Program-made: the position numbers and the translations under genes
Assembly: GCA_009782825.1 (NCBI GenBank)
Contig: WRII01000027.1
Span: 1 to 37,376 of the forward strand
Direction of reading: 5' to 3'
From: Peptococcaceae bacterium
Lineage (GTDB): Bacteria > Bacillota > Desulfitobacteriia > Desulfitobacteriales > Syntrophobotulaceae
Length of the DNA stretch: 37,376 bases
In this document: in pieces, positions 22,978-30,198 of the stretch
How the letters are laid out: each line of letters starts with the position of its first letter
Numbering within the stretch: position 1 is the first letter of the stretch
Notes under the pieces: model-generated
Seen by the model: only the letters and a program-made list of their open reading frames with translations
Databases searched by the model: none
Told to the model about the DNA's origin: nothing

Positions 22978-23085
22978 TGCGGCTCTCCCTTATCTATCTG
23001 GATTCTCTCTCTAGCATAGACTGTTAGGCGCAAAAATATTTGTGTTCATGGAAGTTGATGCTTTACAAGTTCCAAGTCGTTCAAT

Positions 23086-23120
23086 TGGAAGGAACGAGAG
23101 GATTGTGATAAAATGGGTTT
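23086..23120 (+). promoter_or_regulatory. Candidate promoter of the RT operon (-35 TTGGAA, extended -10 TGTGATAAAAT)
   Basis: Read directly ~60 nt upstream of the first gene's ATG. The spacing is about 18 nt. Confidence 0.3.
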
Positions 23121-23180: not shown

Positions 23181-26042
23181 ATGTCAGGATTATTCCGCAA
23201 ATTTTTCAACTTTTTAAGATCCCTATTCAAAGGTAAAACCCGGTCGGATCATACCGGGCCTGGCGGCACAGACATATCACACACAACAGACACTCTTGAT
23301 AACGCTGACACAGACCGGCTCAGCTCAAGCAGCGGCCCCACACGGATCTACAAGCGTGACGCGCACCCTTTAAGAAAAATATACTTATGGGGCTGGGATC
23401 AAGACAACAATCCCAGCTTTCTCGTGCTGTACGGTGTCCATGAATTTAAAAGCACAGGCCCTCGCGGCAACGTTCTCAAGGAGGATGTGCGCTATACGGA
23501 TTATGCGATTTTTAAAGGCCGGGACGGACATTTTCCTTCCTTTGAGGCTGTGAAAATTATTGAGACACGGGAAAACCGCGCTCATGTCAGGCGCATGTAC
23601 TATAAGAAGGATGTGGAAGGCGTTTGTTATTGGAGCCAGACCAAAAAGGAGACCATGTTAACCTGCTTTAAGACATTAGGCAAGGGCTCCCCAGTCTCTT
23701 TCCCATACTTCCAGCAGATGACTCATGAAGCTTATGTCCATAGCCTGGAAAAACTCCCTGTAACATTTGATAAGTTCAGGCTCGCGAGAACCCCCAGCGA
23801 CGTTCTGCAGCCGGAACCTGGGCTGGCCCCCTATACGGAAACCCTCTGTACTCTTTTGAGCCACCCCAATCTCTATATCCGAAAAAAACATCTGCGTGAC
23901 CTTCTTCTGTCGAACCCGCCAAGAGAATTGTACACGTTCCTGATCCGAGTTGGAAGCAATGAGCTGATTTCCGGCCTGTTCTTGGAACTCAGCCGGCTGA
24001 GAAATGATGTCTTGGTCAGTGAAGCGAAAGCGATGCTGCAGGAGGAAATCACATGGGTCAGCGGCAGGTATTTGGAAGGTCTGAAGAGATGTGCCGCTCT
24101 CTATGTTACTGTTTTTGACAAAGACGCCCGTGAGGCCAGGACAGCTTATCTGCGGCAGACCCTGCTCAAGGGGCCGATAGCCAAGAGTTCGTTATGCGAA
24201 GGTTCAATAAATGAGAATATCAATGGTGTCAACATGATCTCCGCCGACATGATTAATACCGTGAAAGCTATCCTGCAAGAAGCGGAGATCTACGGCTTGG
24301 CTGATGTGATCGGGAAGACCGCTTACGAGTTGGATGCTCCTGAGCTGACGCACCTTTTCAAGAACAGCGGCAAAAGCAAGGCCCTCATATATTTGAGACG
24401 GTACGCCCGGCGCATTATGGATGCTTATGCTGTTCATGATGAAGCGAGGTTCGTGGCAGCTATGAAGACACTTTTTATAAGCTACACTGTTAAGGATTAT
24501 CTGAGCAAATTTCCCGGGAATTTTCAAGACAATTATTTTATCAGACACTACTTATATGCCTTTCAGCGTGAGATCTGGGCGCGGCATGTGGATGACCTCA
24601 TTGAGATTCTAGCCGAAGCAAAGGTTCCTGTTGTGGCCAAAGCCTTCTACTCTCTGCTGAAAGAGTGTGTGAACACGGAATATCTGACGCAGGAAGTCCC
24701 TTACGAAAAACTCTTGCGGCTCATTGGCTCTCCCTATTCAGGTGCGGCGGATATGTTTATGCAAATCTTAGCCCGGAAGCTGGCAGGGGAAGAGCAGTTC
24801 GACAGCACCCTTATGCTTCAATTCTTCCACGGCTCCCATCTGAACACTGATCAGGTTCGGGCGAAAATTCATGACATGGCCATGGCCTATTTTGACCGAA
24901 CCGGAGGCAGGCTTTCTCCTCAAGGGGTGATGACCTTGATGTTTGTCCCCGACAGGGATGAATGGCTCGACATGCACCGTCAAAACCTGGAAGCTTTTGA
25001 TCGTGACGAGTATGTGGCGTTTTTGCATGCGTTGATCCGGCATGTGGCCACAGCCACTTCTCCCGGACGGGGAGGGCGGACCGCTGCCGCCACTTTTGGC
25101 TTGGGCATGACAGAGAATCACCAACAGATACTGATTCAGTCTTTAGGCAAGCTGGCGCCGGTTTCCCGGCCGCAAATGACCGGCTTAATATCCGCGGTCA
25201 CAGACCTCTTACGCCGGAGCAAAAAACTGCCGGATACTCTATATCCCTTCTTGGAAGCCCTTGTTTTAGCCGGGCCAATGACTCAGCCATTGGATAAACT
25301 GAGGAATCTTCTGCCGTCCGTAGATATTTGGGGGAATCAGCACACCCAAAATGTTCAAGGCAGGAACCTCTTCCTCCTTTCTCTCCTGCACGCCGTCAAA
25401 ACAGACACCCTTCCTTCCGACACCACTCTGTCGGACATGCTGGAACTCGATTCGGCCCCTATGATGAACACCTTGATTCAAGTCATCGCCTTCCGGCAGG
25501 CTCTGCTCAGTTCAAGATTTTCTACAGTACTGATCCTTCTGGAGTCCGATATCCCTCCCGTGCAGGGGATTGCTCAAGACGTTTTCAACACCCTGCCCCC
25601 AAGAGAGCAAAAACAGCTCCACGCCCTCATCCTCGATTCCCCTGACCAGAAGGTCTCTGAGTATGGCCTGCACAAATTGCGCGACCTTTATGAACAGCCC
25701 GGAGCCCTGATCCCGGAGGATCTCCTCCTAAGACTGCTCGAACACCCCTCTCGTAACGTCAAATCCTATATTGCCGGCAAATTAACGGACATTATCAAAA
25801 CCTTGGGCAACGGCAGCACAGAAGTGTTCATGTACTATGCCAGAACCCTTCTCCTGCTCCCCAACCGGATCTCCCAAGCCAAAAACACCCTCTATGACGT
25901 TTTTCCCGCCTTTGTCAAAGCCCATCCGGACCGCCAATCCGAAGTAGAATCTCTGCTGCTGGATATTGGCGGCTCCAACATTATCTTAGATGCCGAACGG
26001 GCGTTGATGGCCCTGGCCAAAATCAGAAGGGAGGTCGCTTAG
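23181..26042 (+). CDS. Large (953 aa) predominantly alpha-helical (HEAT/ARM-like repeat) protein of unknown function. First gene of the RT-associated operon
   Basis: RBS gggaggcagg then ATG. The N-terminal ~180 aa are a mixed region (KIYLWGWDQDNNPSFLVLYGVHEF...). The rest is long Leu-rich helical repeats. I can read no catalytic motif. Its stop TAG overlaps the next gene's ATG (gcTTAGATGc). Confidence 0.6.
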   Translation: MSGLFRKFFNFLRSLFKGKTRSDHTGPGGTDISHTTDTLDNADTDRLSSSSGPTRIYKRDAHPLRKIYLWGWDQDNNPSFLVLYGVHEFKSTGPRGNVLKEDVRYTDYAIFKGRDGHFPSFEAVKIIETRENRAHVRRMYYKKDVEGVCYWSQTKKETMLTCFKTLGKGSPVSFPYFQQMTHEAYVHSLEKLPVTFDKFRLARTPSDVLQPEPGLAPYTETLCTLLSHPNLYIRKKHLRDLLLSNPPRELYTFLIRVGSNELISGLFLELSRLRNDVLVSEAKAMLQEEITWVSGRYLEGLKRCAALYVTVFDKDAREARTAYLRQTLLKGPIAKSSLCEGSINENINGVNMISADMINTVKAILQEAEIYGLADVIGKTAYELDAPELTHLFKNSGKSKALIYLRRYARRIMDAYAVHDEARFVAAMKTLFISYTVKDYLSKFPGNFQDNYFIRHYLYAFQREIWARHVDDLIEILAEAKVPVVAKAFYSLLKECVNTEYLTQEVPYEKLLRLIGSPYSGAADMFMQILARKLAGEEQFDSTLMLQFFHGSHLNTDQVRAKIHDMAMAYFDRTGGRLSPQGVMTLMFVPDRDEWLDMHRQNLEAFDRDEYVAFLHALIRHVATATSPGRGGRTAAATFGLGMTENHQQILIQSLGKLAPVSRPQMTGLISAVTDLLRRSKKLPDTLYPFLEALVLAGPMTQPLDKLRNLLPSVDIWGNQHTQNVQGRNLFLLSLLHAVKTDTLPSDTTLSDMLELDSAPMMNTLIQVIAFRQALLSSRFSTVLILLESDIPPVQGIAQDVFNTLPPREQKQLHALILDSPDQKVSEYGLHKLRDLYEQPGALIPEDLLLRLLEHPSRNVKSYIAGKLTDIIKTLGNGSTEVFMYYARTLLLLPNRISQAKNTLYDVFPAFVKAHPDRQSEVESLLLDIGGSNIILDAERALMALAKIRREVA

Positions 26043-27821
26043 ATGCAAGTTACTTATCAATACGCCGGTCCCTCCAAGCTTGTGCGGCATCCCGATCATG
26101 TTACTTTCGGCATGAGCCCGGATCTGTCGCGAGAAGAAAAGGTCTCCTTTGTGGGGAAGTTGAAAAATCCCCTCATCTTTCGGGACGCCATGCTCATGCT
26201 CAGAAAAATTATTGTGTCGGATGCCCGGCAGAAAAAAAAGGAACGCACAGAATTTTTCCAATGGCTGAACGGGGAAATTGAGAGACGCATACAAGAACAC
26301 GAACAGGATCTGCCCGGCGTCAGAGACGCCCTGCAGCAGGAGATCGAAGCTTTGCTCCAGGACATGGCCGGCAAAGACACGGCTCTGGCCCAGCTTGTCA
26401 AAACTCGCAAAAAGATTAGCCAAGAGATAGAAAAGTCCGACGCCTGGCGCGACTATCATAAGCTGGAAAAAAAGTTTTGGCAGTTTATCCGCGACCGGGA
26501 CAGAGACTTATGGTTCGTCCTTGATCCTGTGATCACGGTGCATCCGGATCAAGTTTCCTTTGAAGCCTTCTCTCTGGATGAATCCATATACGGCTGTCTG
26601 TCTATAGGCATGGATGAATTTGATCTGCGCGCCGAACCCAAGCTGGGTACGACCAACATTGACTTTTCCGCCAAACTCGCTCAGGAAATGGAACGGTTTC
26701 GCACCTACTCAGATGTGGAACTCTCTGTGAACCCGGAAGGATTCACCGTAGATACAGGCATCCTTCCCGACTATATCGAAAAGAAAATTGACCTGCCTGA
26801 TACATGGATCAAAGGCTTCACCCAAGTTTCGTCAGCGGCCAATCTAAGCGGCGCAGAGATCTCTTTGACTCCGGTGGATATGTATGACATCTGTTCCTTT
26901 TTGCGGCGGCATAAGGCCCAAAAGAGCCCCAGGCATATGACATGGATTCTGAAAAAAGACCACCCTGTAACAGTACGCTTTGAGCCCTTTGGTCACGAAC
27001 TCACGTTACAGGCGATTTACCACGGCGACAAGGACAGGGAAGAAAAAATATGGGGCCGGCAGCGCTGGCTTGTGGCTGAGAAGCTTCTCCCTCTGGCCAA
27101 GTCCTTTACTGTCAAGCTATTGGGGTTTGGTATGCCTCAGTTTATCATCGCAGATTTAGGAAATATGAACATGACCATCGGCTTTTCTTCCTGGTCCGCC
27201 AACGACTGGGTTAAAGGAACAGCTTTTAACATTATGAGCGGCTTCATCGGAGAAGGGAACTACAGAGAAGTTTATGCCCTGCTCAAACAAAAACGCTCCA
27301 TGACGGTAAACGACATCTGCAGCCAGATCCAATCCCGCACACGAAACACAACCCTTTCCGGTATCGGCAGCCTGCTCAAGCGGGGAGAAGGGTACTTTGA
27401 CGCTGTCAATACCCAGGTACGCTTCCGCCAGCTGTGCAATACCCCCATCCCGCAGGAACTGTACGCCACAACGGAAGCGGAACTCCGAGTGACAAGGTGT
27501 TTGGATGCCGGGATGGATCTTTTCCGTATGAGGCTGTCAGAAAAGAATGAGTATGTTTTTACGAATTCCTATTTGGACAGAGATCCGCTGCGAACACAGC
27601 ACAAGGCACAGCATGAGACAGAAATCATGATTGATGAAGACGGTCAGATTGGTCGTGTGGTATGCTCATGCAAAGAATTCAAAAGAGGGCCGCGCAATAT
27701 CTCCGCACCATGCCCCCATATTTTAGCCCTATACATCACCGCCGCGAAATTCACCCGGCTCAGGCTGGAGCAGGGGAGAGTGTATGGGATCAATGATATT
27801 ATGGAGGTGGTGCTATCATGA
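26043..27821 (+). CDS. 592-aa protein with a C-terminal SWIM-type zinc finger. Second gene of the RT-associated operon
   Basis: RBS gggagg. The C-terminal VVCSCKEFKRGPRNISAPCPHILALY gives the CxC...CxH SWIM pattern. Its stop overlaps the RT start (ATGA). Confidence 0.65.
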   Translation: MQVTYQYAGPSKLVRHPDHVTFGMSPDLSREEKVSFVGKLKNPLIFRDAMLMLRKIIVSDARQKKKERTEFFQWLNGEIERRIQEHEQDLPGVRDALQQEIEALLQDMAGKDTALAQLVKTRKKISQEIEKSDAWRDYHKLEKKFWQFIRDRDRDLWFVLDPVITVHPDQVSFEAFSLDESIYGCLSIGMDEFDLRAEPKLGTTNIDFSAKLAQEMERFRTYSDVELSVNPEGFTVDTGILPDYIEKKIDLPDTWIKGFTQVSSAANLSGAEISLTPVDMYDICSFLRRHKAQKSPRHMTWILKKDHPVTVRFEPFGHELTLQAIYHGDKDREEKIWGRQRWLVAEKLLPLAKSFTVKLLGFGMPQFIIADLGNMNMTIGFSSWSANDWVKGTAFNIMSGFIGEGNYREVYALLKQKRSMTVNDICSQIQSRTRNTTLSGIGSLLKRGEGYFDAVNTQVRFRQLCNTPIPQELYATTEAELRVTRCLDAGMDLFRMRLSEKNEYVFTNSYLDRDPLRTQHKAQHETEIMIDEDGQIGRVVCSCKEFKRGPRNISAPCPHILALYITAAKFTRLRLEQGRVYGINDIMEVVLS

Positions 27822-29386
27822 GACAAGAACACTATCGAGCTGTCCATGATATGGGAAAAAAAGAATATACCCTGCTCAAAATGCAGGAATACGGCTTTTG
27901 GCCGGAAGATCTGCCGACGCCCTATGAAAGGCAAGCGCACGAATCCGCGCAAGACTACAACAAGAGACAAGCCCTCTTCAAGGAATATGAGCAGATCGCT
28001 GGTCGGATAGCCAATTTGTATAGTGAGAAAGACGAGATCAATACCCGGTTAAAAGACTTACGGAAACACTATGATCAGACATGGGATTATGAAAAGATAA
28101 GGAAAGACGTCGCCCAAACCATCCTGCGGGAATCCCTGGCCCGGCGCGCGGAAAGAAAACGACAGAAAGAACTTCAGAAGCAAAGGATCTCTGAAGCCTG
28201 GCAAAAACGCAAGGCCGAAAGTATTGTTTTCATTGGCCGGGGCTATTCGGGGCTGCTCTCTGATAAGACCGGCGACGCGGACAAACTGCGCGCCTCCAAT
28301 CTGCCCCTCATCCCTGACGATAAAGCCCTAGCCGCTCTTCTTGGCCTTACGTATACAGAGCTGCGTTTTTTGGCCTATCACAGAGATGTGGTTGTGGCCG
28401 ATCATTACCACCGGTACGAGATTCCTAAAAAGAATGGCGGACACAGACGTATTGCCGCGCCAAAGCCGCTGCTCAAAAAGACCCAAAGAAAGATCTTGGA
28501 ACTCATATTGGAGAAAATAGATATCTCGGAACAGGCTCACGGGTTCGTGAAAGGGCGATCTGTAGTCACCGGCGCTCAAGCTCATAAAACTCATATCGGA
28601 AATCCTTCGCTGCTGATCACTCTCGACCTGGAAGATTTCTTTCCCACCATTACTTTTGAGCGCGTCCGAGGCCTTTTTAAATCTTTTGGCTATTCAGGGT
28701 ATATTGCCTCACTTTTGGCTATGATATGCACCTATTGCGAACGCGTGCCCATTGAAGTCAAAGGTCAGATCAAATATGTACGATCCTCTGAGAGAATCCT
28801 CCCGCAAGGATCCCCGGCCAGCCCCATGATTACAAATATCATCTGCCGCAGGATGGACGCCAAGATCAGAGACCTCGCCACGAACTTCCCGTCCGGCCAC
28901 CCTGTCCAGTCCGGTCACCCTGCCCAGTCCGGTCACCCTGTCCAATCCGGTCACCCTGCCCAAACAAATTCCCCTGCGAGCTGCCGGTGTACATATACAC
29001 GGTACGCCGATGATATGAGCTTTAGCTTTGACAGCACCTTGCCCATAGACGCGGAACACATCAAAAAATTCATCCACCAAATTCAGCGCATCGTCCACAG
29101 CGAAGGTTTTAAAATTAATAAACAGAAAACACGCTATCTAAAACACAACAACAGACAAGCCGTCACTGGCATTGTCATTAATAATGAAGAGATCTCTGTT
29201 CCCAAGGTATGGCTCAAAAAGATGAGAGCGGCCCTCTATAATGCCAAAAAGCAAAAAGAACAGGGGACTCTTGATCCCGGCAAAATACATGAGATAGCCG
29301 GCATGGCCTGCTGGTTGAACTCCGTGAATCCCACCAAGTACAAAAAAATGATTGATGAAGCCAAGGATTTGCAAAGCTCGTCTTAG
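27818..29386 (+). CDS. Reverse transcriptase of retron/retron-like type with a ~190-aa basic coiled-coil N-terminal extension
   Basis: RT motifs are in order: IPKKNGGHRRIAAP (1/2), GFVKGRSVVTGAQAH (retron-type NAxxH-like box), LDLEDFFPTI (A), LPQGSPASPMITN (B'), YTRYADDMSF (C), and NRQAVTGIVINNEE plus LKKMRAALYNAK (the retron-specific RxVTG(L/I)xVN thumb motif). A 4x SGHP(V/A)Q repeat insertion sits between motifs B' and C. The RBS ggaggtgg is present. Confidence 0.85.
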   Translation: MRQEHYRAVHDMGKKEYTLLKMQEYGFWPEDLPTPYERQAHESAQDYNKRQALFKEYEQIAGRIANLYSEKDEINTRLKDLRKHYDQTWDYEKIRKDVAQTILRESLARRAERKRQKELQKQRISEAWQKRKAESIVFIGRGYSGLLSDKTGDADKLRASNLPLIPDDKALAALLGLTYTELRFLAYHRDVVVADHYHRYEIPKKNGGHRRIAAPKPLLKKTQRKILELILEKIDISEQAHGFVKGRSVVTGAQAHKTHIGNPSLLITLDLEDFFPTITFERVRGLFKSFGYSGYIASLLAMICTYCERVPIEVKGQIKYVRSSERILPQGSPASPMITNIICRRMDAKIRDLATNFPSGHPVQSGHPAQSGHPVQSGHPAQTNSPASCRCTYTRYADDMSFSFDSTLPIDAEHIKKFIHQIQRIVHSEGFKINKQKTRYLKHNNRQAVTGIVINNEEISVPKVWLKKMRAALYNAKKQKEQGTLDPGKIHEIAGMACWLNSVNPTKYKKMIDEAKDLQSSS

Positions 29387-29401
29387 AATGTTAAAATTAG
29401 G

Positions 29402-29600
29402 GCATAGGTTTTTTGGCAGGTATGCTATGGTGTTGCGCCATAGTTGAGGAATGTTATGTATACATCACCAAATTGTGCGCAATTCGCTTCGCATCGACTA
29501 ATGGCGCCTTAAAATCTATCCTACGGTGTAGGCGCCATTAGTCGAGCTCCGCTGAAGTGTCACAATTAGATGAGAGATCTTTTAGCAAAAAACCTATGAG
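29402..29600 (+). ncRNA. Candidate retron msr/msd-like non-coding RNA downstream of the RT. The a1-like arm is 29403-29416 and the a2-like arm 29585-29598. The central 15-bp perfect hairpin is 29494-29508 / 29531-29545
   Basis: cataggttttttgg pairs with gcaaaaaacctatg (12 contiguous bp plus 2). Between the arms, tcgactaatggcgcc-N22-ggcgccattagtcga forms a perfect 15-bp stem. A further hairpin is ctatggtgttgcgccatag. No ORF spans the region. Confidence 0.35.
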
Positions 29601-29760
29601 ATAGGGGCTGTTGCCAGCCTCTTCAATCATTGATGAAGGTCTGAGGATATGATGGAAAAATTGAGAGATCTGCCCTTTCAGGTCATTGTCACGGATCAAC
29701 AGAAAGCAGACATTGAGGATGACTCTGAAGATGGAGAAGAGGTTAATTTGGAGGGGTTTG

Positions 29761-30198
29761 ATGTGGAAATATGAAGCAGTCAATGAATACAATACAATCA
29801 GCTTGCATGATTGCTATATAATGCATATTGATGAGCAAGATGGCAATATTATATTCAGCTTTGAACGTGGATTTTGGATTATTGAAACCAACAACAAAAA
29901 CCCTTTTCACAAGACTTTAAGAACTGAGGATGGGGCTAAACTCACACTCACAAATGCTAATTGTGTTGAAATTCTTTTCGAAGATAAAAATATCAGTTGG
30001 CATGAGTTTTGTCGAAGAATTAATGCTGACGAATGGAAATTTGAGTGTATTCATGATAATTATACAGCAAATCAATGCGCCTACGAAGGTTGGATTTACT
30101 TTGACAAAGAACCTTATCATATGGAGTTAGGCCTAAAGTTTACTTTTGGTGACGCAATATACCATTGGAATGAAATCTGTGAGAATAGGCCGTGGTAG
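29761..30198 (+). CDS. Hypothetical 145-aa Cys/His/Trp-rich protein in an AT-rich tail
   Basis: Strong RBS tggagggg 4-6 nt before the ATG at 29761. The annotated ORF from 29686 has earlier ATGs without an RBS. Local GC is much lower than in surrounding genes. No recognisable motif. Confidence 0.4.
   Translation: MWKYEAVNEYNTISLHDCYIMHIDEQDGNIIFSFERGFWIIETNNKNPFHKTLRTEDGAKLTLTNANCVEILFEDKNISWHEFCRRINADEWKFECIHDNYTANQCAYEGWIYFDKEPYHMELGLKFTFGDAIYHWNEICENRPW

Follow-up and report, generated by a model that had tools for sequence, protein, structure and literature searches.

The question raised by this locus is what a 592-aa protein with a C-terminal zinc knuckle does next to a reverse transcriptase (RT), and whether the pairing is new. 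The DNA analysed (the window) covers 37,376 nt of contig WRII01000027.1 from a Peptococcaceae bacterium, read on the forward strand. The ORF at 26043..27821 is real (+ strand, ATG start to TGA stop) and is flanked by a 953-aa ORF before and a 522-aa ORF after. Judged from its profile matches, it encodes the accessory SWIM protein of a type XIII retron, i.e., a member of an already catalogued family. The cassette has four parts:

23181..26042, + strand: accessory gene 1, a 953-aa HEAT/ARM-like alpha-solenoid protein
26043..27821, + strand: the SWIM gene, 592 aa
27818..29386, + strand: the retron RT, 522 aa, extended by helices at its N-terminus (RT_XIII; Pfam RVT_1, E 6e-24)
29403..29598, + strand: the retron ncRNA (msr-msd), 196 nt (inverted repeats, folding, covariance)

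The comparison with the PADLOC models gives the following matches: (i) the SWIM ORF matches SWIM_XIII with E 4.2e-174, aa 1-567 being aligned on model positions 1-503 of 509; (ii) the 522-aa ORF matches RT_XIII with E 5.4e-151 (501.8 bits), the next-best model being RT_other at 2.4e-76; (iii) the 953-aa ORF matches WGR_XIII with E 5e-16, a weak match to the published models. The locus contains an RT_XIII, a cluster 114_1 protein, a HEAT/ARM gene ahead and an msr-msd ncRNA, as a type XIII retron should. Mestre et al. 2020 describe type XIII as a HEAT/ARM protein, a SWIM protein (cluster 114_1) and an RT of RT clade 10, and include in it Mx162, Mx65, Ne144 and Sa163; the preceding HEAT/ARM (WGR-like) protein is found in many members, not in all. 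In the same work, cluster 114_1 is characterized by a DEDE motif, a winged helix and a C-terminal SWIM, and a «Firmicutes» type XIII ncRNA family is already listed. The SWIM-RT association, published in 2020 (Mestre et al.), was surveyed again in 2026, and type XIII is the third most abundant retron group in the 2026 SPIRE survey.

The preliminary description stated that SWIM proteins are not described in RT-based systems, which is false in view of PADLOC SWIM_XIII and of Mestre et al. 2020. It read the protein as novel, unlinked to RT systems and part of a new three-protein RT complex. Pfam and NCBIfam annotate the SWIM protein almost not at all (NCBIfam gives nothing for either the SWIM or the HEAT protein), and it indeed looks novel from sequence alone. 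That reading is nevertheless hardly tenable: PADLOC already has a full-length model made for this family (SWIM_XIII, E 4e-174), which together with the 2020 publication refutes the novelty, and the gene itself adds to an already catalogued family.

The SWIM protein resembles those of Retron-Mxa1 (Mx162), Mxa2 (Mx65), Nex2 (Ne144) and Sau1 (Sa163) by its full-length HMM match. The DEDE residues, the winged helix, the C-terminal SWIM, the adjoining RT and HEAT/ARM genes and a structured msr-msd ncRNA are common to both. The present member differs from published type XIII retrons in that: (i) it comes from Bacillota (Peptococcaceae); (ii) its SWIM spacing is x13 instead of x12; (iii) its HEAT partner matches the published models weakly (E 5e-16); (iv) its RT carries a unique tandem-repeat insertion. 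With the characterised retrons Ec86/Sen2 (NDT effector) and Ec78 (PtuAB) the cassette shares a common logic, i.e., an RT, an msr-msd ncRNA and co-encoded accessory protein(s), and a winged-helix DNA-binding module in an accessory protein is a recurring theme. Unlike them, it has no recognisable toxin or enzyme domain such as NDT, ATPase, HNH, Toprim, TIR or protease, its two large partners look non-enzymatic, and its neighbourhood is of the housekeeping kind, with an apparently vertical inheritance.

The three genes lie tightly packed in one operon and are probably co-translated. Each is preceded by a GGAGG ribosome-binding site 8-11 nt ahead. Four-nucleotide overlaps had been claimed on both sides of the SWIM gene; this is right downstream, where an ATGA at 27818-27821 joins SWIM and RT, and wrong upstream, where the HEAT stop codon TAG (26040-26042) is followed at once by the ATG at 26043 with zero overlap, both ORFs being in the same reading frame. 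Among close relatives of full length, 22 out of 24 have SWIM and RT genes that overlap by 1, 4 or 7 nt. One promoter-like site lies 5' of the operon:

23085..23114, + strand: TTGGAA-18-TAAAAT with extended TG (consensus scan alone)

It lies 67 nt before the ATG of the first ORF, a suggestive position that is in itself no evidence of function.

The related loci with at least 1 kb of flank (n = 65) were used for the neighbourhood. The RT gene is directly 3' of the SWIM gene in 62 of them, down to 26% identity, so that the proposed link with the RT stands, homologues mostly lying beside an RT. The order HEAT, SWIM, RT is kept in all six genome loci that hold the three genes. In three loci the SWIM gene has no nearby RT, two of these having the HEAT partner; because of these three loci, the SWIM/HEAT pair may also work outside the retron. 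Altogether, the gene neighbourhood speaks strongly for a functional partnership between the SWIM protein and the RT. Mestre et al. 2020 also report co-evolution, in which the partner of the RT is the HEAT and not the SWIM protein.

The cassette sits here among housekeeping genes. A search for tRNAs in the window gave none. A phage origin was considered and rejected, as two conserved peptide patterns found no relatives in 2.9 million IMG/VR viral contigs. The downstream 170-aa ORF (29686-30198) was also rejected as a part of the cassette, since it matches no family significantly and is unconserved in the related loci.

The HEAT/ARM protein begins with a disordered N-terminus (aa 16-51), followed by an unassigned beta-rich domain (aa ~56-200). 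In the RT, the motifs YADD and VTG are present and conserved. The RT gene also contains a repeat:

28887..28962, + strand: in-frame 18-nt tandem repeat (x4.2), found by TRF

It encodes a GHPxQS-rich insertion of ~30 aa just ahead of YADD, whose residues occur in none of the 55 aligned RT homologues.

The ncRNA lies just 3' of the RT gene in this clade, whereas in distant type XIII clades a1/a2-like repeats are found between the SWIM and RT genes. Its elements, and a promoter-like site ahead of it, are:

29403-29415 and 29586-29598, + strand: repeats a1 and a2, 13/13 complementary
29416, + strand: candidate branching G (identity inferred)
29424-29444, + strand: msr hairpin
29471-29567, + strand: long msd hairpin, including a perfect 16-bp stem
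29369..29397, + strand: promoter-like site TTGCAA-17-TAAAAT with extended TG, its end 6 nt ahead of the ncRNA (consensus scan alone)

Its predicted folding has an MFE of -77.4 kcal/mol (z -6.2). A covariance model (R1) found 29 ncRNA copies in related loci, with compensatory changes at 44 of 53 base pairs; 92.6% of the alignment cells are paired, vs. ~40% when the partners are slid. Rfam gives no match for the ncRNA or elsewhere in the window. A transcript starting ~7 nt past the -10 element of the promoter-like site would begin at the a1 repeat, and the ncRNA probably has its own promoter. It must be noted that some relatives carry tandem ncRNA arrays with hypervariable upper msd stems.

The sequence supports the assignment of a putative SWIM zinc finger:

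27636..27740, + strand (aa 532-566; ligand codons within 27663-27719): SWIM zinc knuckle, C541-x-C543-x13-C557-x-H559 (Pfam PF04434, E 0.0032; conservation)

The spacing first given, CxC-X16-CxH, has to be corrected to CxC-x13-CxH. The pattern CxCx(6-25)CxH occurs once in the 24,217 residues of the stop-free six-frame translation of the window. Conservation was calculated on 60 diverse homologues, 21-54% identical to the query, in which the ligands C541/C543/C557/H559 are kept at 100/97/97/97%. The profile gives a mixed answer: the query itself is sub-threshold for PF04434 (17.4 bits vs. a cut-off of 19.6, E 0.0032), but 43 of the 60 family members match at E<=0.01 (best 4e-08). In the AF2 model a strand ends with the CxC and a helix begins with the CxH. 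The SWIM fingers of PF04434 (MuDR/MULE, MEKK1, SWS1/ZSWIM7, YehQ) have in common with this one the CxCxnCxH pattern, invariant ligands and a predicted strand-strand-helix layout; the sub-cut-off score is a difference, and beyond the finger neither YehQ nor transposases resemble the protein.

A YehQ-like protein was thus rejected: when the family profile was compared with E. coli YehQ by hhalign, 30 SWIM columns only were aligned (probability 6%). Homology of the HEAT ORF to YehI, the E. coli DUF4132/WGR protein, was rejected as well, the comparison giving nothing significant, and no MoxR or VWA genes, as at the E. coli yeh locus, are found here. The family counts 1637 homologues among the 8000 candidates scored, and 799 representatives at 50% identity. 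Some members are fused to a BRCT (E 1e-15) or a WGR domain (E 3e-18), and these domains are known mainly from proteins that sense or repair DNA breaks, such as PARP1.

The rest of the protein (560 aa) had been described as free of any recognisable module. This holds for Pfam and NCBIfam, which are nearly silent, but not for the structure prediction. The AF2 model (pLDDT 86.6, pTM 0.81) leads to a confident predicted architecture, i.e., a PCNA-like clamp fold of two domains, interrupted by a coiled-coil hairpin and followed by a winged helix and the SWIM knuckle:

26043..26216, + strand (aa 1-58): N-terminal strands and first helix of the clamp-like module (AF2; approximate bounds from topology)
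26247..26516, + strand (aa ~69-158): long antiparallel coiled-coil hairpin inside the clamp-like module (AF2)
26520..27197, + strand (aa ~160-385): two-domain core of the PCNA-like fold, which contains nearly all invariant residues
27255..27437, + strand (aa ~405-465): winged-helix domain with invariant G448 and R462 (model and weak profile hits)

The first segment is made of E2-7, E12-15, E19-24, E35-40 and H43-58 (pLDDT 82-95). The helices of the hairpin (H69-86, H91-131 and H138-153) have a lower pLDDT (56-84); the hairpin is poorly conserved and variable in length, aa ~101-113 being missing from most homologues, and its comparison with PDB and Pfam gives chance coiled-coil matches only. 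The invariant residues of the core are D161, P162, E174, S177, D179, Y183, G202-T-T-N-x-D207, R220, E246, W255 and W337-G-R-x-R341. Foldseek against PDB gives 484 matches at E<=1e-3, and the 50 matches listed among them are all PCNA. The model contains two topologically identical beta-alpha-beta-beta-beta domains, and sliding clamps have two or three of these per protomer. What may be new is that the large unannotated part of the protein is predicted to have a PCNA-type sliding-clamp fold and not a transposase fold.

Sliding clamps are closed trimeric or dimeric rings around duplex DNA, and an AAA+ clamp loader puts them in place. The SWIM protein resembles PCNA, Rad9-Hus1-Rad1, the beta clamp and herpesvirus UL42-UL44 in its predicted fold, and its conserved basic residues are on the helices which, in true clamps, face the DNA. 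It differs from true clamps in that: (i) no sequence similarity is detectable; (ii) a coiled-coil hairpin of ~90-100 aa is inserted after the first helix; (iii) it continues at the C-terminus into a winged helix and a SWIM finger, and it has a conserved acidic cluster; (iv) a clamp loader gene is absent nearby and the partner polymerase is an RT. There is no PCNA_N, PCNA_C or DNA_pol3_beta Pfam match in the query or in the 60 homologues, and the family profile against PDB sequences yields weak winged-helix matches and coiled-coil noise, with no clamp chain (PCNA or DnaN). Since no sequence profile matches, the protein is called clamp-like in fold and not a clamp-family member. No clamp-loader-like gene was found in the cassette or in the neighbouring genes scanned (15945-37017), and the RT, HEAT and SWIM proteins have no PIP-box or beta-clamp-binding motif.

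A domesticated remnant of a MuDR/IS256-type transposase, with a DDE/DEDE core followed by SWIM as in MULE/FAR1, was suggested by Mestre et al. 2020, and the order of an acidic motif and a C-terminal SWIM does resemble MULE transposases. It is nevertheless very improbable, given that the confident AF2 model shows no RNase H-like fold to carry an acidic triad, that none of the 60 members has a transposase Pfam match, that the window contains no terminal inverted repeats or second copy, and that the two peptide patterns did not find the family in the 2.9 million viral contigs of IMG/VR.

The acidic residues are also central to the proposal of Mestre et al. 2020 of a nuclease effector: the protein would have a DEDE metal-dependent site that cuts DNA or RNA once the retron is triggered, with the winged helix and SWIM directing it to its target; type XIII is listed there among the nuclease-associated retrons, which speaks for this proposal. 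The pattern D-x7-D-x4-E-x32-D-x38-E is present (D161, D169, E174, D207 and E246), and its core residues are 82-100% conserved in the 60 homologues, a level typical of catalytic or metal-binding sites. Moreover, no effector domain is identifiable in any other protein of the cassette (Pfam, PADLOC and NCBIfam among the searches). We regard a nuclease as unlikely all the same: these residues are located on a predicted PCNA-like clamp fold and not on an RNase H-like DDE/DEDE or other known nuclease fold. We know of no nuclease with a clamp fold, which also counts against it. The strong conservation of acidic residues is, however, unusual for a DNA-contacting clamp, and an enzymatic or metal site would fit it better.

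With such a fold, the protein could alternatively be a processivity or template-holding factor for the RT, like PCNA or herpesvirus UL42/UL44, needed for the unusually long msDNAs of type XIII. Such lengths are judged from the names Mx162, Sa163 and Ne144 (the names encode msDNA length), the msd hairpin predicted here is ~100 nt, and the SWIM gene is translationally coupled to the RT via the ATGA overlap. This is a rather improbable role, since retron RTs as a rule produce msDNA with no help from accessory proteins. Furthermore, Mx65, with a short msDNA, is also type XIII, the RT has no PIP-like or clamp-binding motif, and SWIM/HEAT pairs without RT exist. The RT is also reported to co-evolve with the HEAT and not with the SWIM protein (Mestre et al. 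2020).

We lean, with moderate confidence, towards the SWIM protein being an msDNA-binding scaffold of the type XIII retron complex. The RT would reverse-transcribe the msd region of the ncRNA to give a long hairpin msDNA, and the SWIM protein would hold this msDNA as a nucleic-acid-binding scaffold. The clamp-helix arginines (R47, R220 and those of W337-G-R-R/Q-R341) and the winged helix (R462) would grip the duplex stem. Docking of the HEAT/ARM partner or of the RT would be due to the SWIM knuckle, the coiled coil or both. If characterised retrons are a guide, the complex of RT, msDNA and accessory proteins would be a poised sensor, a disturbance of which triggers an output, and the near-invariant acidic cluster (D161, E174, D179, D207 and E246) would be the sole candidate catalytic or metal-binding site for that output. 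Binding of nucleic acid is supported by the conservation, in the 60 homologues, of arginines on the predicted clamp helices and on the winged-helix wing, and by the BRCT/WGR fusions and the invariant SWIM ligands. Against the scaffold are the following points: the clamp similarity is structural only; a clamp loader gene is absent, as are PIP or beta-clamp-binding motifs in the partners; the acidic residues are more strongly conserved than is usual in a clamp that contacts DNA; three SWIM loci lack a nearby RT; and the cassette lies among housekeeping genes.

A bolder extension of the scaffold is possible though doubtful. As a clamp subunit of the PCNA/9-1-1 kind, the protein would encircle or cradle the msDNA hairpin made by the RT, and would constitute with the HEAT/ARM protein (with WGR/BRCT in some relatives) a prokaryotic analogue of the eukaryotic sensors of DNA ends and damage, acting on self-made DNA; the variable msd stems of tandem ncRNA arrays would then be alternative «guides» or baits. 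In the full-text literature, of which the coverage is admittedly incomplete, neither functional nor structural work on the accessory proteins of type XIII was found, nor any reference to a clamp fold in them.

Type XIII is among the most frequent and most widespread retron types, and its accessory proteins have no recognisable toxin domain. Two of its members, Mx162 and Mx65, were the first retrons ever found. If the SWIM protein is a clamp-fold nucleic-acid binder and not a transposase-derived nuclease, the working hypothesis for type XIII changes, and a protein that binds or stabilises long msDNA, if this is what it does, could be useful for retron-based genome editing.

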